A DNA stretch of 64,000 nucleotides from Octopus vulgaris (GCA_951406725.2 OX597815.1:179242001-179306000), one strand, 5' to 3'. Numbered from the stretch's first letter, positions 5,190-64,000 are shown. A program made the numbers and translations. The notes: a model not told the origin generated them from the sequence alone.

Positions 5190-5581
5190 CTCATCATCAT
5201 TCATCATTGTTCGACCGTGGTCGAGACAATGGAATTTACCATGCTACGCCAGACTTCACGGTCCATCATGGCATTACGGAGGTCCTGTTGCTGGATGCCT
5301 GTATCCCTGGAGATTACATCAGGGTAGGAGAGTGTGCGCCCTCTGGTATTGCGAGTAGATGGCTTCCAGAGGAGAAGAGTAGAAATTACTTCTTTTTCAG
5401 CTCTACAACAATGTCCAGCAAACTGGACTCTCCTACCTTTCACAAGAGATGACACAGGTGGTAGTTTCCCATATATTTGCATTTTGGTTGGATGGCGCTT
5501 CCACGAGAGATTTTGAGCTCTCATAATGAGGCGAGTGTAGGTTCCATCCAACCGCCTCTCAAGCTTCTTTGATAACGTCCA
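5190..5581 (-). mobile_element. 5'-truncated RTE-group LINE 3' end
   Basis: ORF 5204-5551 (LSWKRHPT...RRVQFAGHCCR...LLWKP...RGR...MMDREVWR) is a typical RTE/RTEX C-terminus, followed by a (TGA)n tail. Confidence 0.75.
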
Positions 5582-6266
5582 GGTTATCTACATTATTGAA
5601 TGCGCCTCTTAACTTTAACAACATAGAATGTTATTAATGTTATTAGAGGTATGTTTAAATTTTATTGCTAACAAGTTCAGTGAGTATATCGAAGTTTCAG
5701 TATTGGCTCGATTAATTATCATTTTCACAATTGTGTCGTTAAATCTTTATACGAAACCATGTTTATTGCGGAAGAACTGTATTGTACTTAAAAGTTCAAA
5801 GCCGTTATGAAGCATCGGAAACATTCAAATTGTAATATATGATATTTCAAAGAATTTTGATATGAGATAGAAAATGAATATAAGTTATTTTTTGAAATGT
5901 CACGTTCAAGGTAAACAAACTCACCTTACAAATTATAAATATGAAAGTCTTTTATCAAATTTTATAGCAAAAAATTTTTTCTTTCTACTGAATTGTCTCG
6001 TGCTGCAGAACGCCAGTCAGATCATGATGATTATGTGATTAATATACACTTTCTGACATTTCAAAGAAATTCAGTCACGCTGTGGCAGAATACTTAGAAC
6101 AGAGAAAATGCGTTAGGAAGTCTGGTTTCAATTTTGTATCGAAACATCGCCTAGGTGGTATTATATTTCCATTTTTCCGCAGTCAAGTAAATAAGTACCA
6201 GCCAAGTGCTGAGGTCGATATACTTGACTATACCTCACCTTTAAAAGTGTGAGCTTTTTTTATATC

Positions 6267-9679: not shown

Positions 9680-10065
9680 GGATGGAAGCACTCCGTCGGT
9701 TACGACGACGAGGGTTCCATTTGATCCGATCAACGGAACAGCCTGCTCGTGAAATTAACGTGTAAGTGGCTGAGCACTCCACAGACACGTGTACCCTTAA
9801 CGTAGTTCTCGGGGATATTCAGCGTGACACAGAGAGTGACAAGGCCGGCCCTTTGAAATACAGGTACAACAGAAACAGGAAGTAAGAGTGAGAGAAAGTT
9901 GTGGTGAAAGAGTACAGCAGGGATCACCACCATCCCTGCCGGAGCCTCGTAGAGCTTTAGGTGTTTTCGCTCAATAAACACTTACAACGCCCGGTCTGGG
10001 AATCGAAACCGCGATCCTACGACCGCGAGTCCGCTGCCCTAACCACTGGGCCATTGCGCCTCCTC
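9680..10065 (-). mobile_element. tRNA-derived SINE, family S2, with 11-bp TSD
   Basis: Head GGAGGCGCAATGGCCCAGTGGTTAGG...GGTTTCGATTCCC. TSD TAGATGGTAAT at 9669-9679 and 10066-10076. Near-identical to the 46803 copy. Confidence 0.9.
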
Positions 10066-24335: not shown

Positions 24336-24985
24336 TTTAAGTGATACATAGTTTATTGATACATAGTTTATTGACCCCGAAACGGTGACATGTGAAATCA
24401 ATTCCAACAAGATTCGAGACCAACAGATAAAGAAATTTGACCCAATATTACACGACAATATGTCCAATGATATATCACTTCTGCTTGTTCAACGCTCTTT
24501 TAATACTGTGAAATATTGTTGCTGAACGAAATTTAATATCGTTGCTAAGAGATGAATTCAATTAACGTGAGATTGCTGGAGAGGCCTTACAGCGGCAATA
24601 ACATAACGACGTTGCTCATAAAATATTCTTAGGGCAGAAAGCAACACGCTTTACAAGACACAGGAGTTTTGTGTGTATAATTCAAAAGGTTACTGGTACT
24701 TATGTTCAATGCTAATGCTTTGGAAAATAATATTGAAAACACTGCTAAAAGCTTTTGAGGAGAAATCATCGAAATAAACTGTAAAGGGTTTCATAACTAG
24801 AAACTAATAAACAGCTTTATAATTAAACATAAATTAAGGACTTTAATTACTTGTTCTTAATTAAGTTCTTCATCCTAGCTACTGACATTAATAAATCTCA
24901 TTTCAACCACTGGAAATCTTCATATTTCTTTTAGAGTAAAACTTCAAAGATAAGTAGGACACTTCAGGTTTACACATACACACAC

Positions 24986-25025
<40 letters not shown>

Positions 25026-25122
25026 GCACACACATATATATAGCACATATATGTATCTATTATACATATATATATATACACACATATGTATATAGTATAT
25101 ATACACATATATATATATACGT

Positions 25123-25157
<35 letters not shown>

Positions 25158-25205
25158 AATTATTTATGAATATATATATATACACATATATTTATTGTAT
25201 ATATA

Positions 25206-26325
25206 TATTGGCAAATGTTGGAATCCGTGGAAAACTTCTACACTGGATTAAGTATTTCCTGGCAAATAGAACACAACATGTTGTAGTTGATGGAGTCCAC
25301 TCAAGCCCAGTAAAAGTCAACAGCGGTGTCCCCCAGGGGATTGACTTGGGTCCGCTACTCTTCATAATTTACATAAACGACTTTTCCAGTGTCGTACATT
25401 ACTGCAAATTTGCTGATGACACTAAGCTCCAGCAAATCGTCAATGAAGAAGCAGACCGAACTCAACTCCAGTCTGATCTATATGCTGTGAGTCAATGGGC
25501 AGACAGAAACAAAATGCAACTGAACGAGGGAAAATTTGAGCTGATGCATTTTGGAAGAAATTCCTCACTAAAACAGCCATACTCTCTTCCTTCAGGGGAA
25601 CCGCTCACAGCCTCTAACAATATCAGAGACCTGGGTGTAATTGTTGATGACGATCTCAGTTGGAGTGCACACATCAACAAGAAAGTCGATATAGCTCGTA
25701 GGATGAGTTCCTGGATCTTAAGAACTTTCCGGTCCAGAGAACAAGGTGTCATCATATACAAGACAAAACATCTCGAGGATTGAATCTTCCCAGAGGGCAC
25801 TCACTAAACGAATTGAAGGCATGGCTGCTCTCGATTATTGCGACCGCCTTAAAGCCTTGAAACTCTACTCTCTCCAGCGTCGCCGTGAGCGGTACATCAT
25901 TTGTACGATGTGGAGAATATACCGCCAACTTTGCCCAAACGACCTGAACATTAGCTTCAAGGTTCATCCAAGACTGGGACCACGGGCCATACGTCCCTTG
26001 CCCAATTCAAGATCACAGCATATATGTACATTGCAACATAATTTCTTTTCCTCAACAGGCCCTGCCCTATTTAACATTGTCCCGAAAGAGATCAAAGAGG
26101 AAAAGGATCCCATCAACTTTAAACGGAGTCTGGGTAGATTCCTTCAAGGAATACCAGATAAGCCACCCATAATTGGATACAACTCACCCAACAAAAACTC
26201 ACTACTTGAATGGACCATAAACAAAACTTGACTTAAACAGGATTTAGATAATCCTATCAGGTGGTGCTATTAAGTTAGACATGGCCTGGACCAATCTTTG
26301 GTCGAAACATATCTAAGTTTATCTA

Positions 26326-29195: not shown

Positions 29196-29261
<66 letters not shown>

Positions 29262-29343
29262 GTGAAAAGGAACACACGAGTTGATATATATGAAAAAACA
29301 AGTCAAAATAGAAAATGCTAAAATAATTTTATAAAGAACATTT

Positions 29344-29381
29344 CAGTACCGGTTTCGGTCATTTTGAGACCTTTTCAACTG
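29344..29381 (-). ncRNA. pLTR hammerhead ribozyme (U3-A8 compensatory core), 3' pLTR
   Basis: CAG-TTGAAAA-GGTC(TCAAAAT)GACC-GAAAC-CG-GTA-CTG. Confidence 0.75.
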
Positions 29382-30077
29382 TAACGATTAAATAATTAAA
29401 TTTAGAAAAATTAGAAGAAAAGTTTTTTTAAAGGAATATTTGTATAGTAGTGTTCAAATATAAGTGGCATTCTGCCTTTCTCTGACTCCCTTGTTTGCAC
29501 TTGTGTGTTCGAGGTCGTTGTGAATTCTTGGTAGGGTAGAAGAAGAAGAAGGCTGAAGAGGAGAGGGGGTGGAAAAATTTGGGAGTGCCTTGATTGTTGT
29601 ATTTTGAATGGTCAGTGACGGCTAGCAGTTGCAGTTCAATTCAGGAGAATATTTCTATTGAGAGATTTGTTTATGGAATTTGCGTAGGTGTTTTACTAAA
29701 AAGCATTAGTGATAAAGTTAAGAGGTAGAAGGTGGAGCAGAAGAAGAAGAAGAAGAAGGAGAAGAAGAAGAAGAAGATGACGATGTTGATGATGATGATG
29801 ATGATGAAGAAGAAGAAGGAGAAGGAGAAGAAGAAGATGATGATGATGATGGTGGTGATGATGATGACGATGATGATGATAATGATGATGATGAAGAAGA
29901 AGAGGAAGAAGAAGAAAACAGAGAAGGGAGAATATGAATGGGTGAAAGTAGTGAGGTGTTGTATGACTTGAAGTTGGCATGTTATGGATTATAGCTGTGA
30001 TTGGGGCTGATTAGTAATGGATTCTTTGGAATGTAATATTTGTGTGTGTATTTCTTTTATTCTAAAGTTGAGGTATA

Positions 30078-32409
30078 TTAATCGTTTGTCGTAGACCCGT
30101 TAAGAAGTGGCCTGTATTTTGTAATAAAGAGAGTTTCTTTACTTATTCGTTGTCTCGAGGTTGTATCGTCCCTAAATTGGTAGAGGGGGAAAATCCTGAA
30201 GCCTGGTGTTTTGTTGTTGGCGCAAGTATCTATGTGTTGGCTGAAAGCTATTTTTCTGTTTTGGGGAATTTTTATCTGGGATCTGTGCAGGGCCATTCTT
30301 TTACGCAAACTATTTTTTGTTTGGCCTATGTACTGCTCTTGACACCCGGAGCAGGTTAGTGAGTATATTAGGTTCTCCGAAGCACATGTGAAGTTGCTTT
30401 TCACTGTAAACCGTTGTCCCTGTTTGAAGGAGAACTCTGATCCCTCAATTAGATAGTCGCATATCCCGCAATTGGGTCTTCCACATTTTTTTACTGTCGG
30501 CTTCTGTGTTGAAGAGTGAATTCGGGCTTGTGTTAGGAGACTTTTCATGGATTTAGGCTGTCTCTTGCTTTTTATGATCGTGTGTGTTTGGAGGATTGTG
30601 TTCATTTTGTGGTCTTTTTTTAGGAGGGGTATGTTGTGGAGGATGGTGCCGAAGGCTTCGTTATTGAGAGGGTTGTGTGTGGAGATGTATGGTAAGGCTT
30701 TTGGTCGTAAGTTTTTCTTTGATTTGGGATGTCTCAGTTCCTTGATGTTAAGTTGAAGGGCACGTTGAATGCACTTGTCAATAAGTGAAGGTGGATAGTT
30801 CCTGGTGATAAGGGTATCTTTTAGTTCTTGTAGTCGTGTGTCTCTGGTGTTTGCATTAGAGACTATAGTGCATATCCTTTTTGCTAGATTGAAGGGGATA
30901 TTCATCCTGGTGTGTCTGGGGTGGCATGAATTGAATGGAAGATATTGCTTAGAGTCTGTAGGCTTATAATATATGTCTGTTTCTATTACATTATTAGCTT
31001 TCTTAATGAGGATATCGAGGAAGGGGAGTTGTTGCTGGCTATATTCCATCGTGAATTGGATGTTTACGTCCAGTCCGTTTAAAATTTCTCGGAATTCTAT
31101 GAGTTTCTCAATATTTTCATGCCAAAGGATGAAACAGTCATCTAGATATCTCTTCCAGTTGTTTTCTATGTAGATGGAGAAAGGGCTGCCATATCTTTCT
31201 AGAACCTTACGATACAGACTGATCTCTAGATATCCTATGACTAGGTTGGCAAAGGAGGGGGCCATTCGTGTACCCATCGCAGTCCCCGATTTTTGTCGGT
31301 AGAAGTTGTCATTGAAGGCGAAGAAGTTATTTTCCAGGATGAATTTAACCCCTTCTATCACGAATTCTTTTTTGATGCGATGTGGTAGTTCGTTGGCGTG
31401 ATTCTCTAGCCAGAATTGGATTGCCTCTAGTCCTAGGTTGTGGGGGATATTGGAGTAGAGGTTGACTACATCGAAGGATACCAGTATGGTGTTTTTGTTT
31501 ATAGTATTCGGTAGGTGATTGAGCATATCCAAGTCGTCCCTTATATAGCTTTTGACATGTTTGAGGAGTGGTTTTAACAGGGTGTCTAAAAAGTTACTGA
31601 GGCGGTGGGTTTCGCATGCGGGACCTGCTATTATGGGTCTCAATTTGAGGTCATTAGGATTAGGGACTTTAATTATTTTGTCTGTAGCTATCTTGCATGC
31701 GTTGCTTATTTTCTCACTTTTGTGTATCTTAGGTATACCGTAGAATTGGATGGTTTTACTTGTGAAATTGGTCATATAATCATATTCTTTGTCGGTGAGC
31801 CCTGCTTTGTATGGGTTTAACATGGATTTTAGTTCCCTCATTATTTTTTGTTGACTGTAGTTTTGTGCCTTTTCATAGTATGTTGTGTCTTCCAGCATAG
31901 AAAGTACCAAAGTTATGTAAAATGTCGTATCCATTAAGACAACAGCACTCCCTTTATCGGCCTCTTTGATTGTTATTGTTTTATCTTGTTTTAATTTGTT
32001 CAACTCAGCCCATTCTTTTTTGCTGAAGTTTGGTTTGTGTTTTTGTTTGTGTATATGTTGATATGGGTAATTTGATATGTGGTCACAGAAATCATCAAGT
32101 GTTTTGTTCTTACCTTTAGAGGGGGTGTAGTTACTCCTATTTCTGACTAACGATTCGTCCTCGTTGTATTTATCGTATAGCTCCTCAGGTAAGTCTTAAT
32201 TTTCTGCAGAATTCTGCGATGTCTTCTTTCATTTCATTGTAGTTGGGGTGTTGTGGGGTGGGTGTAAACTTGAGTCCTTTGGAAAGTATGTTTATTTGGT
32301 TTGCTGTTAGTTCCTTGTGAGTTAGATTGATAATTTTTATTACTTTTGGTTCCTCCTGCTTGTTTGGTGCTATCTTGTGTCTCTGTGTTTGCGTATTGGG
32401 TCTAAAAAA
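30078..32409 (-). CDS. PLE reverse transcriptase + GIY-YIG endonuclease; N-terminus extends beyond the tracked ORF (1-nt frameshift at ~32188)
   Basis: ADKG, GIPKIHK, LRPII, SFDVVNLY, GTAMG, RYLDD, PFLD, CGRPNCGIC linker, LIY...YIGQT..LRKR motifs. Upstream INLTHKELTANQINILSKGLKFTPTP (PLE N-terminal motif) in a neighbouring frame. Confidence 0.93.
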
Positions 32410-33605
32410 TGAATGCGGTGGTTGGGACGGTAGCTATTATATAGTTGTTCTTTGTTGATGTGGGGTCTCCTGTTGTGATTTATGGTGTGTGTTCTTGGAG
32501 CAGTATTGAGGAGAGCGTCCCGATATCCCATATTCGGGTGTGGTGTTCTAGGAGGCCTTCGTTGGTAATCATTGCAAGTGGTGTGGGTTTGTTGTGCATG
32601 GTTGTTTAACCGGTTGATGGGACGAAGATTTCGTTGGTAACTCTTTTGGGTGGGGATAAGGTTGCAGTGTCTATGCTGTGGGTGTTGATTTATCCTTTCT
32701 CTGCTTGAAGTAGGGGTATTCCTGATATTGTATCGCTGGCTGCTTACAGAGTTAGGGTTAGGTCCTGTATTCTTTTTTTGATAGTAGTGAAGGTTCCGAT
32801 TTTTAGACAGGTGTGTATCGGTGTTTGGGTGTTGTTTTGGTTTTCTTATTTTCTGGAAAGGGTTGTTGGAGGCGTGCTCTGTTGGAAAGACGGCTTCATA
32901 GTCTGAGAACCAAGTGGCGCTTTTCTCCCAGCGTTGGAGAGATTTTAGTTCTTCTTTTTCACAGTCCTCTTTCCATAGTTTGGAGAACTTCTCTTGATCT
33001 GGGCCTTGGGTCATTTTGCGAATTTCTTCGTTGATATCTTCATCGGTGGATTTTATTTTATCCTCATTCGTTTGGGCCCTCAATTTCAGAAGTTTTATTT
33101 CCATTTTCATTTTTTCCAGTGCCATTCTTTCCCTGAGGCGTCTTCGTGTTTCAGGTTCCTCTGTAATAGTTTTGAACTGGAATTTACGTGGGAGGATTAA
33201 CGGGGTCCGGTTGAGCCATTTTTCGTATATATCCGCTTTGTTGTTGTTTTGGATCATCTTCCAAAAGGCGAACTTTCTATCTCTGAGTGATTTGTTCCAT
33301 TGTGGTATTATGTGGTGTTTCATTTGGTATGTTGTTAGAGTATTGATCCCATATATTGACGCGTTTGGGGGTCCTTGGTTAGCGTTGTTAGAGAAAAATG
33401 TTCTAATTGTTTCGCATAAGTTTCCAAGGTTTTCGACAATTTCGGAGGTTGTATTTTTCGTATCAGCTTCCTCATTGTTCTCTCGATTGGGTTGATGTGT
33501 CGAGTCGAATTTGTTCAAAAATGTTGACAAATTTGTGTTGATTTTCTTGAGTTCTTTCAGTATTTCTTCATTTATGGAGGTGATTGTGTCTGTTTTTGTC
33601 GGCAT
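32370..33605 (-). CDS. PLE1 ORF1: ~410 aa unknown protein, central coiled coil, basic N/H/R/P-rich disordered C-terminus
   Basis: Uninterrupted ORF between the 5' pLTR and RT. First ATG (MPTKTD) at 33605; the track's GTG start lies inside the pLTR. Heptad-like RLRERMALEKMKMEIKLLKLRAQTNEDKIKSTDEDINEEI. Confidence 0.8.
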   Translation of the reverse strand: MPTKTDTITSINEEILKELKKINTNLSTFLNKFDSTHQPNRENNEEADTKNTTSEIVENLGNLCETIRTFFSNNANQGPPNASIYGINTLTTYQMKHHIIPQWNKSLRDRKFAFWKMIQNNNKADIYEKWLNRTPLILPRKFQFKTITEEPETRRRLRERMALEKMKMEIKLLKLRAQTNEDKIKSTDEDINEEIRKMTQGPDQEKFSKLWKEDCEKEELKSLQRWEKSATWFSDYEAVFPTEHASNNPFQKIRKPKQHPNTDTHLSKNRNLHYYQKKNTGPNPNSVSSQRYNIRNTPTSSRERINQHPQHRHCNLIPTQKSYQRNLRPINRLNNHAQQTHTTCNDYQRRPPRTPHPNMGYRDALLNTAPRTHTINHNRRPHINKEQLYNSYRPNHRIHFLDPIRKHRDTR

Positions 33606-33724
33606 TTTCTGTATCTCGTGTGGGTTAATGATATGTATAAGGGTGAAAAGGAACACACGAGTTGATATATATGAAAAAACAAGTCAAAATAGAAAATGCT
33701 AAAATAATTTTATAAAGAACATTT

Positions 33725-33762
33725 CAGTACCGGTTTCGGTCATTTTGAGACCTTTTCAACTG
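33725..33762 (-). ncRNA. pLTR hammerhead ribozyme, 5' pLTR
   Basis: Identical to 29344-29381. Confidence 0.75.
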
Positions 33763-33999
33763 TAACGATTAAATAATTAAATTTAGAAAAATTAGAAGAA
33801 AAGTTTTTTTAAAGGAATATTTGTATAGTAGTGTTCAAATATAAGTGGCATTCTTGCCTTTCTCTGACTCGAACACACAAGTGCAAACAAGGGAGTCAGA
33901 GAAAGGCAGAATGCCACTTATATTTGAACACTACTATACAAATATTCCTTTAAAAAAACTTTTCTTCTAATTTTTCTAAATTTAATTATTTAATCGTTA

Positions 34000-34037
34000 C
34001 AGTTGAAAAGGTCTCAAAATGACCGAAACCGGTACTG
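34000..34037 (+). ncRNA. pLTR hammerhead ribozyme, inverted pLTR
   Basis: CAGTTGAAAAGGTCTCAAAATGACCGAAACCGGTACTG read directly on plus. Confidence 0.75.
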
Positions 34038-34085
34038 AAATGTTCTTTATAAAATTATTTTAGCATTTTCTATTTTGACTTGTTT

Positions 34086-34475
<390 letters not shown>

Positions 34476-46802: not shown

Positions 46803-47161
46803 TGGAGGCCCAGTGGTTAGGGCAGCGGACTCGCGGTTTCGATTCCCAGACCGGGCGTTGTGAGTGTTTATTGAGCGAAAACACCTAAAGCTCCACGAGG
46901 CTCCGGCAGGGATGATGGTGATCCCTGCTGTACTCTTTCACCACAACTTTCTCTCACTCTTACTTCCTGTTTCTGTTGTACCTGTATTTCAAAGGGCCGG
47001 CCTTGTCACTCTCTGTGTCACGCTGAATATCCCCGAGAACTACGTTAAGGGTACACGTGTCTGTGGAGTGCTCAGCCACTTACACGTTAATTTCACGAGC
47101 AGGCTGTTCCGTTGATCGGATCAACCGGAACCCTCGTCGTCGTAACCGACGGAGTGCTTCC
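46803..47161 (+). mobile_element. SINE family S2 with 14-bp TSD
   Basis: TSD ACTACACCAAATTG at 46789-46802 and 47162-47175. Confidence 0.9.
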
Positions 47162-47672
47162 ACTACACCAAATTGAAACTACGGAAAATATGGAGGGAAA
47201 ATTATCCAGATTTAAACTAATGATGGACACCCACAGACGAGCTAACTTAAACAGTTGTTAAAAAAATAATCAGCTGAAATATCATTTCAAAGAAAGAACA
47301 TTAGAAAACAATTAAAGAACGGAATTGAAGGAACAGAAATAGAAACATTGAAATCATGACCATGGAATCTAAAGGCTGGAATAAATAGCGAATTATTAAC
47401 AATAGATATCACAAGAATAAAACTAATCGATAAAAATAGCAGCGGCAATAAAGTTCGATAAAACGTAAACATGGCCAACACACAGTTCAGTTCATGTAAA
47501 CAGGTACAAATGTTACGAATATTAATATTTCCAGTTTAAACGAAACAATGTGCGGCAGACATAGAACTAACACAAAAACAACATTGAACGTTTCCAGAAT
47601 TTTTCAAGTAAAAGCATTCTTAAAATGTACGTCAAATTAAGACAGAGAACCGAAATCAAACGTTTTTAGATA

Positions 47673-48550
47673 CGTAGTCTAATCCGGACTGTTGCCATAG
47701 TAATGAAGCCAAAGCACTCAGAGTAAAGCCGCTTGGCACAAATTGACCTTACCTTAAATTCTGCACTAAGTTTTAACGTTATAGCTTACTTTCGCTGTTT
47801 ACAGCAGTGCTTGGAAGGAAGGTGTGTAGTGTGTGATCGTCGCATTGACCATGACAGAAAAAGTCAAGTAGGGAATCTGCATCAAATTTTGTCAAAAACT
47901 TGGCGATACCTGCTCAGAGGCCTACGCAAAGTCTTCAAAAGGTCTTCATCGTTCTTGACACAATCAAGGAGATCTTGCGCAACTGAAACCCAAGTGTTGT
48001 TTTGGTCAGCTGAAAACGGTTTTGGCACAAACTTGGCAGACACGCGTCTCATACCCAAATGTTCAGTGATAATGAACTGAACTGAACCGTAACTAATCTG
48101 CACATCCTCTGATAACTCACGGATAGTGATTCGACGATTTCCCCTCACAGCTGCACGCACATATGCGATGTTTTTCTCAGTTCTGCTGGTTGCGGGTCTC
48201 CCAGAACGTTCGTCATTATCGAAATTTTTTCGGCCGTCTTGGAAATGTCTGAACCACTCGTACACCTGTGTACGGCTCATACTCTCGTCTCCATACACTT
48301 TCTGAAACTTTGCGTAGGCCACTGAGCAGGTATCGCCATGACAACTTTCTCTGTCATGGTCAATGCGACGATCGCACGCTAGACACGTTCTTTCCAAGCA
48401 CTGCTGTAAACAGCAGAAGTGAGTTAAAACGCTAACACTTAGTGCGCATGCACAGCAGGGTTCTAGGTCAATTTGCGCCAAGTAGCTTTACTCTGCGTGT
48501 TTTAGCTTCATTACTATAGCAACAGTCGGATACTTATTGATCAGACCTCG
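47673..48550 (-). mobile_element. Foldback mariner derivative: two inward-facing 5' ends with a transposase N-terminal fragment
   Basis: TIR CGAGGTCTGATCAATAAGTATCC flanked by TA. HTH peptide VYGDESMSRTQVYEWF..F.DGR....DERSGRP...RRVSAKFVPK. Diverged ~250 bp inverted arms. Confidence 0.85.
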
Positions 48551-56209: not shown

Positions 56210-56910
56210 TTACAAACAGTACCAAATGCAGGTTGATACATTACAACTGTTTTTTTTTAAGTTGATAGTCAAGCCAAAATTATCACAAGCTGAGTCAAAT
56301 GCAGATACAAGAGATTGCAGACCTGTTTCAGAATGACTGACAAGATCGCAATCGTCAGCGTATAAAAGTTCACTAATGAGTGAAGTAAAAACCTTCGTTT
56401 TGAATTCCAGTCTGGTCAGATTAAAACCATTCCCTGTTGTTCGATATTTTATGTAAATACCATCCCCAGGGAGAACAGTAAATAGACATTTGTTTCTAAC
56501 TGACATCGCTTCTATTCATAAGCGCTGGGTAGAACATTTTTCTGCACTTTTGAATAAATCATCATCTGCTGACACCTTCCAGTTATAGAAGAGATGGCAT
56601 TTGAACCAACTCTAAATGACATTTATTTAGCTGTGAATAAGCTGAATAACAATAAGTCTACAGAGTCTGATGGAATCTGTGCAGAAGTCTTGAAATATGG
56701 GGGTGACAAAATGTTTGAACTCTTAAATATATTAATTTGTCATCGTTGGAGAATTGAGAAAGTACCTCAAGACTGAATTGATGACATTTTAGTCTCCTTG
56801 TATAAATCGGGGCCAAAGGGTCTGTGTGGTAATTTTCGTGGGATTTCGCTTTTGTCTGTGGTCGGAAAGGTAGTTGCCCACATTCTGTTAGAATGTTTAA
56901 ATACCTTCAT
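56210..56910. pseudogene. Two RTE-clade RT fragments in opposite orientation
   Basis: Minus: ISELLYADDC...FGLTINLKK. Plus: RWVEHFSALLN, NNKS..SDGICAEVLKYGG, CGNFRGISLLSVVGKV. Confidence 0.8.
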
Positions 56911-57218: not shown

Positions 57219-57403
57219 CCTCCTTCTTCCCTTCTTTCCTGAGCGTCCAATAATACTTTATTTGTTCCACGTCCTCGCGTTGCTGTGTTTTTCGTGTGTT
57301 TTCTTGTTTGGATTAACTTTATATATATATATATATATATATATTATTAGTGAATTGAAGAAATGGAGTTGAACGAAGATTGAACAGAAATCGTTTTATT
57401 GCA

Positions 57404-57483
57404 TTCTACACGTGTTTCGAAAGGCACAATTTACCAAATTCCGATTGAATAAGGAGACCATATTGTGTCTTTCTCTTCAGGAA
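57404..57483 (-). ncRNA. Canonical hammerhead ribozyme (left arm)
   Basis: Reverse complement of 58329-58408. Confidence 0.85.
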
Positions 57484-58328
57484 GAAATAGGAAATCCGTT
57501 GGAAAAAACAAAAACAGAACAGAGGCGGAGCAAAACAAATCGAACGAGGCTCCTAAGAGCCCATGGCCAAACTGTTTATCAATGTATGTTGAAAACAGGG
57601 TGGTGGGTGCGTTGAAGATTTTAACGGGTCAGGCAGCGGTCATCCGGTGGGTGAGAGCACGGGGTGCTTAGATGTTCTTTGTGACCGAGACTAAAGTTCT
57701 CACTATTTAAAGAATATTAGGTGTATTATATGGGGCGAGACAAAATCTACTTAGAAACATGTGTGTGTGTACTGTTCTATATATGCGCGGCCGCAAGTTG
57801 GTAAGAAGCGCTACACTCTGGTCGCTGCTGAGAAATCCGTCAGGGGGTAGAAAATATTTTATGTGTTCGTATGTGTGTTTGATCACGCGGCCGTCAGTTG
57901 GTAAACAGCCCTACACAATGGTCACTGCTGTAAAATCAGTCGGGTGGCAGAAAAATAATTTTTTACGTGTGCGTGTGTTCGTCTAATCATGCCTTGTCAA
58001 AGAAACCCCCCGTCGTCAAAACAAACCACCATTCGTCTCCCAGGAGTAATTCCCCTTGCAGGAGTAATTCCCCTCGCCCCATATAATACACCTAATATTC
58101 TTTAAATAGTCAGAACTTTAGTCTCGGTCACAAAGAACATCTAAGCACCCCGTGCTCTCACCCACCGGAATGACCGCTGCCTGACCCGTTAAAATCTTCA
58201 ACGCACCCACCACCCGTTTTCAACATACATTGATAAACAGTTTGGCCATGGGCTCTTAGGAGCCTCGTTCGATTTGTTTTGCTCCGCCTCTGTTCTGTTT
58301 TTGTTTTTTCCAACGGATTTCCTATTTC

Positions 58329-58408
58329 TTCCTGAAGAGAAAGACACAATATGGTCTCCTTATTCAATCGGAATTTGGTAAATTGTGCCTTTCGAAACAC
58401 GTGTAGAA
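58329..58408 (+). ncRNA. Canonical type I hammerhead ribozyme with 12-bp stem II
   Basis: TTC-CTGAAGA-GAAAGACACAAT...ATTGTGCCTTTC-GAAAC-ACGT-GTA-GAA. Predicted cleavage after 58405; AATAAA at 58412. Confidence 0.85.
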
Positions 58409-58618
58409 TGCAATAAAACGATTTCTGTTCAATCTTCGTTCAACTCCATTTCTTCAATTCACTAATAATATTAAAATTCAATTATCCACACCAACGCACG
58501 GTTGCAACACCATAGGGTTGTACCCCCAACCTTGCTGTCTTCTGCTGTGATTTTTGCTACCAAGGTATCGGTTAAACTTTTGATTAATCTGCAACAAGAT
58601 TATTCATCTTTCTATTTC

Positions 58619-62002: not shown

Positions 62003-62036
<34 letters not shown>

Positions 62037-62070
62037 CACTCACACACATACATCACCTACATATATATAA
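60718..62070. repeat. Degenerate (CA)/(TA) low-complexity tract
   Basis: Direct reading. Confidence 0.9.
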
Positions 62071-62208
62071 TGCATGCGTGTGCATGCCACGTATGTGCGC
62101 TAGTGTGTCCTATGCGTGCCGATGCGCGCATGTGCCCGCCCGCACGATATGCTGTGAGCGTGCGCGCGTCCCTGTGTGCTTGCTCTGGATGTGCTTCCAG
62201 GGGGTATG

Positions 62209-64000
62209 TTAGAGTATGTTTAGTTGTGGTCTGTATTTTTGAATAAGATTACTTTCCTTATTTATTCGTGTTTGGTCTGTGGTGTTGTCCGAGCATTGGT
62301 ATAGTGGGAAGACTAAGAATTTGGGGGACTTATTGTGTGCACAAAGGTCTAAGTGTCCACTTAGTGGTATCTGTCTTGTGGAGGGGTCCCTCAGTTGTTG
62401 TCGGTAAACTGTCATTCTGTCTCTGAGGGTAAGGCTCGTTTGCCCTATGTAGTCTTAGTGGCATCCTTCACACCTTATGACGTAGAGTAAATTTTTTGAT
62501 GCGCACGTGAAGTTATTTTTTATGATGAATGTGTGTCCCGAGTGGAACTTGTACGACGATCCCTCAATGAGGTGGATGCAGGTCTTACAGTTGGGGCGAC
62601 CACATTTTTTGATGGTGAGCGGTGGGTTTGTGTTGTGTAATTTTGCGTTGGTGAGGAGGTTTTTTAGGGATTTAGGTTGTCTCTTACTTTTTATTATTTT
62701 ATGAGCTGCCAGTATTTTTTTCAGGCGTGGGTCTTGATTTAGTTGTGGAATGTTGTTGTATATAATAGTGTAAGCTTCTGCATTCCTTGGGTTGTGTGTT
62801 GAGAGATAAGGGAGGCTATTGACTGTACTGTGGATGTGTTTGGGTTTTCGAAGGTCTTGAATGTTGATTGATTTGGCCCGTTCTATTCCGTTGTCTACTA
62901 GTGATGCCGGGTAATGTCTTTCGAGAAGAATTGCCCTTAGTTCCCGGAGTCTTCTATTTCGTGTTGTGTCATTTGAGACAATAGTGCAGATTCTTCTCGC
63001 TAGGTTGAAGGGGATATTTGTCTTTGTGTGTTTTGGGTGATTGGAGGTGAATAGAAGGTATTGTTTAGAGTCAGTGGGTTTGTAATGGATGTCAGTTTCA
63101 ATGTTGACGCCTTTTTTAATGATTAGGATGTCAAGAAAAGGGAGTTGGTCCTGACTATATTCCATTGTGAATTGAATGTTGTTATTTACACTGTTGATAA
63201 GGTTTTTGAAGTCTATAAGTTGGTCGAGTGTGTGGGACCATAGGATGAGGCAATCATCTAAGTAGCGTTTCCAGTTCTCCAACAGGTATTTGTGGAAAGA
63301 CTGGCCGTACTTATATTTGGATTTTTCATAGATATGTGATTCCAGGTAGGCCATCACCAGGTTTGCATAGGTAGGTGCAACTTTCGTACCCATTGCAGTC
63401 CCTGAGACCTGTCTGTAAGTGTTGTTGTGGAAATACATGAAGTTGTTTTGCAGAATAAATTTGAGGCCCTCAATTATGAATTCTTTTTTAATTCTTTCCG
63501 GGATCTCATTGGGATATTTATCCAGCCAGAATTTAATGGCTTCCAGTCCAAATTCATGTGGGATTGTGGTGTAAAGATTAATAACATCAAAAGAAACGAT
63601 TAAGGTGTCTTTATCGGCATGTTTGGGGAGATGGTTTAATAGGTCCAGGTCATCTCTTACAATACTTGGAATGTGTTTCAGTATTGGCTTTAAGATGATA
63701 TCTATAAAGTTGCTAAGTCTGTGTGTTTCACAACTTGGGCCTGCCACTATTGGTCTCAGTTTGAGATCAGTGGGATGTGGTATAGTGATGCAGGTTGAAG
63801 TGGACTTTTTGCAAGCTTCTGTGATAATTTGACTCTTGTGTATTTTTGGAAGCCCATAGAGTGTGCTGGTTTTGCAATTAAATTTAGTAATGTAGTCGCA
63901 TTCCTTTGCTGTCAAGTAATTCCGGTGTTGGTAAATGAGTGCCTTCAGATTGGTCATTGTTTTGGATTGCTGGTAGTCGACTACTCTTTCGTAGTATGTG
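62209..64000 (-). pseudogene. PLE2 RT + GIY-YIG with one premature TAA (62455-62457) inside the GIY-YIG motif
   Basis: ORF 62455-63957 (GLPKIHK, RYLDD, CGRPNCKTC, LLYVIRC) continues in frame as *DYIGQT... into ORF 62209-62415. Clearly homologous to the PLE1 protein. Confidence 0.92.

Follow-up and report, generated by a model that had tools for sequence, protein, structure and literature searches.

How does a Penelope-like element (PLE) make its enzymes when a second long open reading frame (ORF) precedes its reverse transcriptase (RT)? The question is raised by a 64,000-nt stretch of Octopus vulgaris DNA (GCA_951406725.2 OX597815.1:179242001-179306000; hereafter the window), whose minus strand holds an endonuclease-containing (EN+) PLE with an ORF1 of 411 amino acids (aa) ahead of the frame for its RT and endonuclease (ORF2, encoding RT-EN). 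EN+ PLEs are generally annotated as one ORF. Our analysis indicates that ORF1 is a real gene and that RT-EN is probably made by programmed -1 ribosomal frameshifting at a conserved U UUU UUA heptamer near the ORF1 end. The element probably works like a gag-pol retroelement and yet belongs to the EN+ PLEs, most likely within Neptune. If true, these relatives of telomerase would balance structural protein against enzyme as retroviruses do, through a conserved ORF1 family and a gag-pol-like slip. Annotations restricted to the RT would miss a third of the protein and begin at the wrong codon, which matters for expression work.

ORF1 as a conserved gene

Searching the genome for element copies gave 1507 candidates, 150 of which were scored. 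The 30 loci considered here are the best matches and hence biased towards intact copies. The same 411-aa ORF starts from the same ATG in 15 of them. With the ORF1 core as reference, 26 have their RT in the -1 frame; of the remaining four, two show another frame after breaks in ORF1 and two have no visible RT start. With additional queries we recovered nine ORF1 families (A-I), whose cores are about 42-97% identical to the queries. Since ORF1 precedes a PLE RT in all nine families, and ORF1 and RT trees are broadly alike, ORF1 is not a nested insertion. Between families, dN/dS (Nei-Gojobori) was 0.09-0.27 in the core (aa 91-255) where dS was computable, 0.18-0.49 in the N-terminus and 0.26-0.74 in the tail; dS is near saturation, which makes these ratios rough, and the comparison of A with A2 gave 0.56 on few changes. 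Judged by these substitution patterns, ORF1 is a real gene under purifying selection. The initial annotation had proposed a two-ORF EN+ PLE from an intact ORF of about 410 codons between the 5' pseudo-long terminal repeat (pLTR) and RT-EN on the same strand. This proposal holds up: ORF1 is open in other copies, a dN/dS near 1 is excluded for the core between families with unsaturated dS, and so is an origin from an unrelated insertion.

A profile built from seven ORF1 cores was searched against 1.84 billion representative proteins (E <= 0.001) and matched 899 clusters at 50% identity, the best 150 of which are 100-553 aa long. By this profile, ORF1 is part of a large family without a name. Searches for a specific family or sequence match in Pfam, NCBIfam, PDB sequences and the ESM Atlas returned none. 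The AlphaFold model of aa 1-260 (97 sequences; pLDDT 88.6), considered for a capsid, RRM or esterase fold as in Gag or the LINE ORF1p, is all helical, with predicted helices at 7-37, 49-76, 85-132, 152-198 and 202-243. The tail (aa 256-411) has a pI of 11.3, with 28 K+R against 7 D+E. Foldseek of the model against PDB and viral models gave no match at E <= 0.001, and the best VIA-align hit (Z 8.6, rmsd 4.2 over 154 residues) is at the level of a generic helical bundle; these null searches do not establish the fold as new. From the long helices, the basic tail and the position of ORF1 we infer that its protein may oligomerise and coat the element RNA. The initial annotation had described a coiled coil with a basic disordered tail, and the long helices and basic low-complexity tail agree with that description; the RNA-chaperone role attached to it stays a suggestion.

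The ORF1-ORF2 junction

ORF2 is in the -1 frame of ORF1; it opens at 32433, and 61 nt at the ORF1 end belong to both frames. The initial annotation was right about the position of ORF1 and took the two frames as merely adjacent, thereby missing the overlap and the slippery junction. The PLE N-terminal motifs (IINLT...LSKGLKFTPTP...FCRKL) sit in the -1 frame, ahead of the start of the long RT frame. T TTT TTA, in the ORF1 frame, is the sole X XXY YYZ heptamer within the overlap, an arrangement that is one feature of programmed -1 frameshift signals. It is preserved in 28 of 29 other family A copies. Each of the nine families has a heptamer at the homologous place, T TTT TTT in G and T TTT TTA in the other eight, from which the -1 frame enters the RT N-terminal motif. 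For eight of the nine families ORF1 is open from core to heptamer in at least one copy. The -1 frame opens 4-10 codons ahead of the heptamer in eight families and 35 codons ahead in E. In six of the eight families with a readable ORF2, its first Met lies behind the (I/V)INL(S/T) motif (0-based codons 67, 69, 190, 139, 159 and 46); in the window copy it is codon 68. Codon usage of the elements predicts the T-TTT-TTA spelling for 1.3-1.8% of HFL/PFL peptides, and we found it at 5/5 junctions versus 0/20 other Phe-Leu pairs. Among the best 150 homologues listed, 77 have at least 340 aa and were treated as full length; FL falls within the last 45 aa in 65 of these, compared with 3 and 5 in control windows.

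These patterns argue for the programmed -1 frameshift named above. Most ribosomes would halt at the ORF1 stop and release the 411-aa helical protein with its basic tail, which would oligomerise and coat the element RNA like Gag or the LINE ORF1p. A minority would slip and yield an ORF1-RT-EN fusion of about 1175 aa. This fusion would join the same particle and perform target-primed reverse transcription into (TA)n. As folding predicts no RNA structure past the site, the heptamer itself would have to cause the slip, perhaps aided by a terminating ribosome 10 codons ahead. The gag-pol -1 frameshift site of HIV-1 is likewise U UUU UUA. The octopus element would thus share with retroviral gag-pol the heptamer and the pairing of an abundant structural protein with a rare polymerase fusion; in contrast to gag-pol, it has no stem-loop after the site, no protease and no zinc knuckle, and it is not a virus. 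The frameshift is testable in very young families such as G, whose copies are 99.2-99.7% alike.

Besides the roughness of dN/dS, several observations weigh against frameshifting. No stimulatory fold was predicted past the heptamer (z -1.8 to +2.3 in eight families, -0.5 to +1.0 in the ninth), unlike classical -1 signals; in the window copy, local folding found no stem of at least 4 bp starting within 20 nt of the heptamer. Family F is known from a single broken copy, and family H has ORF1 open to the junction in 1/15 loci. In families C and D an AUG stands in frame immediately ahead of the RT motif. Small indels have fused ORF1 and RT in frame in several E and G copies. The distant homologues are known as proteins only. 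Finally, TTTTTTAG, the junction sequence of eight of the nine families, resembles a splice acceptor, and in family G a CAG follows a few bases later.

This last point leads to the main rival, in which the T run and AG act as a splice acceptor and RT-EN is translated from a spliced transcript. Introns are known from PLEs, TTTTTTTACGTCAG of family G would cut ORF2 in the same phase, and in 46 of the 65 distant homologues FL is followed by G, E, D or A, residues whose codons start with G. In the other 19, the codon of the residue after FL is unable to begin with G. An in-frame join would require a phase-2 donor in ORF1, where the best phase-2 GT scores at most 3/6 against AG/GTRAGT (seven families), and a join from the 5' untranslated region (UTR) would leave 6/8 families without an AUG ahead of the first RT motif. 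The tract is pure T rather than mixed pyrimidine, and the frame is fixed. Contigs from three runs of three studies, presumed to be RNA, span the junction unspliced, which is weak evidence. Two joints in contigs of four presumed-RNA runs (31171-31363 and 31475-31591) lie away from the junction, and contigs cannot show expression; no RNA data set is recorded as carrying the element. We therefore consider splicing improbable.

Separate translation of ORF2 beside the ORF1 stop, by the termination-reinitiation that LINE-1 and SART1 use, was suggested by the 13th -1-frame codon from the heptamer. Families C and D have ATG there, families A and B have ATA, and in A, B and D the codon overlaps or adjoins the ORF1 stop. 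The same codon is CTG, TTG or CTA in E, F and H, and the ORF1 stop of C, E, F, G and I lies at least 30 nt downstream. Reinitiation fits families A-D, not E-I. It would also leave unexplained the invariant in-frame heptamer and the -1 frame that is open up to the 13th codon in all nine families. We rate it, too, as unlikely.

The in-frame fusions bear on a third rival, in which one U is added on the T6-T7 run during transcription and the ribosome is not involved. A single extra base would yield the same fusion, no RNA stimulator is seen after the heptamer, and in the genome itself some copies owe their fusion to homopolymer indels close to the junction. Polymerase slippage has no need of the X XXY YYZ register, yet this register is present in all families with an intact ORF1. 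Runs of six to seven T are short for polymerase slippage. Contigs of four runs show no inserted base at 32403-32409, although contigs drop rare variants. This explanation appears very improbable to us.

The fused copies are L121-L126 and L138 (family G) and L107 and L110 (family E), with up to 1214 open codons; in family G, 6/107 matches exceed 1100 aa. The fusing indels could be true mutations or homopolymer assembly errors. A fused master element in family G was rejected: there are at least three different small indels and no private substitution marks a lineage. Open frames of 668 and 681 aa were likewise rejected as intact ORFs, since they stem from 5'-truncated copies whose frame continues through (TA)n.

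No homologue among the best 150 is longer than 553 aa. Searches for long fused forms found three matches at 299-2000 aa, all below 400 aa, and none at 939-2680 aa, which is weak evidence. Metagenome and viral scans gave no confirmed DNA locus for the distant homologues. Homologues without FL (P0017, P0147, P0060, P0073, P0067 and P0093) end in DFR, NFR, YFR or HFF. NF or DF would suit other slippery heptamers and, at the protein level, stands 12 residues from the end in P0147 and P0017.

Distance from heptamer to stop and possible ribosome collision

In the 65 homologues, FL stands at least 12 residues from the ORF1 end. In 23 of them, whose last ten residues are unalignable, the distance is exactly 12, made up of Phe, Leu and ten further codons before the stop. 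Of the octopus families, A, B and H have a distance of 12 and D has 13; in C, E, F, G and I it is 22, 22, 32, 25 and 25. The eukaryotic disome offset is about ten codons. Slipping may thus be stimulated by collision with a ribosome terminating at the ORF1 stop, with no RNA structure needed, a reading that we regard as possible but doubtful. In Escherichia coli, a stop with a 9-codon spacer after a slippery heptad raises -1 slipping of the trailing ribosome about twofold (Smith et al. 2019, PMC6815119). That reporter is engineered and bacterial, whereas the octopus candidate is natural and eukaryotic, with 10 codons. A nearby stop in SARS-CoV-2 has been proposed to act otherwise, via pseudoknot refolding (PMC8168617).

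Several findings speak against collision. In a quick tree the trait is clustered, with 21 of 25 rows in one clade and 12 changes versus 21.8 when shuffled, and the 10-codon gap is missing in five of the nine local families. Frame-0 stops also arise as by-products of Ile/Val/Leu codons in ORF2, which accounts for the 22-25 class and makes a geometric null (P about 1e-17) far too generous. Distance 12 could have the same origin, provided that the distant families have the RT motif at that place. The stop of families A, B and H, however, lies 10-13 codons ahead of the RT motif, unlike the by-product case. If collision were at work, RT-EN output would scale with ribosome load and termination speed, and the element would be a natural eukaryotic case, within a lineage of two-ORF EN+ PLEs that is widespread; the reports consulted contain only engineered bacterial reporters. 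The fixed 10-codon gap would make it simple to test collision-driven recoding in eukaryotes on a natural case.

The stop distances also hinted at a second periodicity (22-25, 32-34), which we rejected, since in families C, E, G and I the stops coincide with Ile/Val codons in the conserved ORF2 N-terminal motif. The ORF1 ends of C, D, E, F and P0001-P0004 share a conserved DT(R/G)W, with the Trp codon at the position of the A/B/H stop.

Element layout, class and neighbourhood

On the minus strand the element runs (TA)n, inverted pLTR, 5' pLTR, ORF1, ORF2, 3' UTR, 3' pLTR, (TA)n (table 1). By self-BLAST, the 5' pLTR (about 33870-33641) is 98.75% identical over 240 nt to the 3' pLTR region 29250-29488. 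ORF2 of the window copy is broken by a 1-nt insertion near 32188 that is peculiar to this copy and leaves 82 + 705 codons; in sister copies it is one uninterrupted frame of 784 codons.

Table 1. Features of the octopus element in window coordinates.
Feature	Position	Strand	Remarks
Inverted pLTR copy at the element's 5' end, next to (TA)n tract	33868..34097	+	arms 29284-29513 / 33868-34097, 230 nt, 100% complementary
5' pLTR, direct repeat of 3' pLTR, shortened at 5' side	33641..33870	-	ends approximate
Minimal hammerhead-like motif in pLTR	33725..33763	-	core UUGAAAA...GAAA...GUA; pattern match
Further hammerhead-like motif copies	29382-29344; 33999-34037	-; +	pattern match
ORF1	33605-32370	-	ATG 33605 to TAG 32372-32370; 411 aa, 437 aa stop to stop
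ORF1 protein regions			aa 7-76, helical hairpin; aa 85-243, conserved core of three helices; aa 256-411, basic low-complexity tail
ORF2, 5' part	32185..32433	-	-1 frame, 82 codons; linker, IINLT...LSKGLKFTPTP...FCRKL
Slippery heptamer T TTT TTA	32403..32409	-	ORF1 frame, His-Phe-Leu; candidate -1 frameshift site
ORF1 stop TAG	32370..32372	-	10 sense codons past slippery Leu codon; candidate roadblock for collision-stimulated slipping
ORF2, remainder	30078..32195	-	RT (YLDD), C-x4-CxxC linker, GIY-YIG endonuclease with CxxC between motifs
3' pLTR with hammerhead-like motif, then (TA)n	29260..29513	-	ends approximate

The frame 30078-32195 matches Pfam RVT_1 (E 4.6e-8), and its GIY-YIG domain (motif NLIY...CSGC...YIG; E 1.4e-4) reaches 22.5 bits, 0.1 bit short of the Pfam cut-off of 22.6. 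The element thus has the RT with C-terminal GIY-YIG and the direct and inverted pLTRs of EN+ PLEs, and differs from the canonical single-ORF description by two overlapping ORFs in all nine families. The spacing of the RT-endonuclease linker fits Neptune, not Nematis, in a by-eye comparison of six families and family I with the Fig. S2 text of PMC8557442. A CX2-5CxxC linker and a stretch of roughly 25 aa ahead of the GIY motif, absent in Nematis, are present. By this linker, the element is most likely an EN+ PLE of Neptune type. With the Neptune clade it shares the RT, the linker, the C-terminal GIY-YIG with two cysteines between motifs, the pLTRs, the inverted 5' end and the (TA)n target (PMC8557442).

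Canonical EN+ PLEs are described as single-ORF (Craig et al. 2021, PMC8557442), in contrast to the octopus element with its 411-aa ORF1 overlapping RT-EN in the -1 frame, and PLEs have been divided into single-ORF EN+ and two-ORF EN-lacking elements (PMC6431247). The contrast that the initial annotation drew with the published record was sound for the canonical case and overstated beyond it: some EN+ PLEs have extra ORFs or domains (PMC12602865, PMC5408684, PMC8557442), such as the esterases in Neptune-like PLEs of fish and molluscs (PMC5408684) and the gag-like ORF1 of Chlamys elements (PMC8557442). The killifish Neptune element repeat.CL27 also has two ORFs and an ORF1 without database similarity; this ORF1 has 420 nt and is reported as non-overlapping, with no mechanism given (PMC12602865), whereas the octopus ORF1 overlaps RT-EN. 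Athena/Terminon elements and the two-ORF Coprina share an upstream ORF1 with coil and disordered regions; they lack an endonuclease and are telomeric (PMC6431247, PMC13159263), with reverse-complement telomeric repeats at their 3' end, whereas the octopus element has a GIY-YIG fused to its RT and lies inside a chromosome arm, near position 179 Mb on a contig of 216 Mb, between (TA)n tracts.

The legend of Fig. 1 in PMC8557442 allows for an ORF1 that is set off by a frameshift with a pseudoknot. The octopus element would share such a frameshift between ORF1 and RT, unlike that one with no pseudoknot or stem after the slippery site. We take the frameshift of that legend to be that of Athena. There is a fair chance that specialists have already drawn the layout of ORF1 and frameshift. 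The portions available of PMC3846280, PMC6515669, PMC5718144, PMC13282606, PMC13159263 and PMC7544508 contain nothing on this ORF1-ORF2 junction, and we found no paper on slippery sites or programmed frameshifting in PLEs in a search outside which Repbase and bioRxiv supplements lay. The nameless ORF1 family, the absent RNA stimulator and the fixed slip-to-stop distance remain new here.

Each of the three pLTR copies has the hammerhead-like core, and so do families A and H; the pattern was unmatched in five other families. Against Rfam HH9 the pLTR motif scores 20.9 bits (E 0.12), below the gathering threshold of 52. Stems I and II form on folding (z = -1.0), which is weak evidence by itself. 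The core reads UUGAAAA in family A and UUGACAA in family H (L154:rc 554), with U3-A8 in the position of the usual C3-G8 pair.

A second PLE copy lies at 62004-64000 of the window (L100, extending to about 64362) and is 98.4% identical to family D (L077). The possibility that it, too, has an ORF1 was not borne out, as it is 5'-truncated within ORF2, with a short inverted pLTR piece about 1.3 kb beyond; full-length family D copies do carry ORF1. Full elements also form head-to-tail tandem arrays with a spacing of 4.3-4.4 kb in families A and G and 5.8 kb in family D (L082-L084, L086, L077/L078; G000 C23 4.57-4.60 Mb). Elsewhere in the window, 24935-26231 (+), 5204-5587 (-), 56210-56515 (-) and 47727-48487 hold fragments that by eye resemble LINE RTs and a piece of a mariner-like transposase. 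Finally, the near-perfect inverted repeats at 57341-57599 / 58213-58471 (259 nt, 100%) and 9683-10014 / 46831-47162 (332 nt, 98%) are probably other young repeats.

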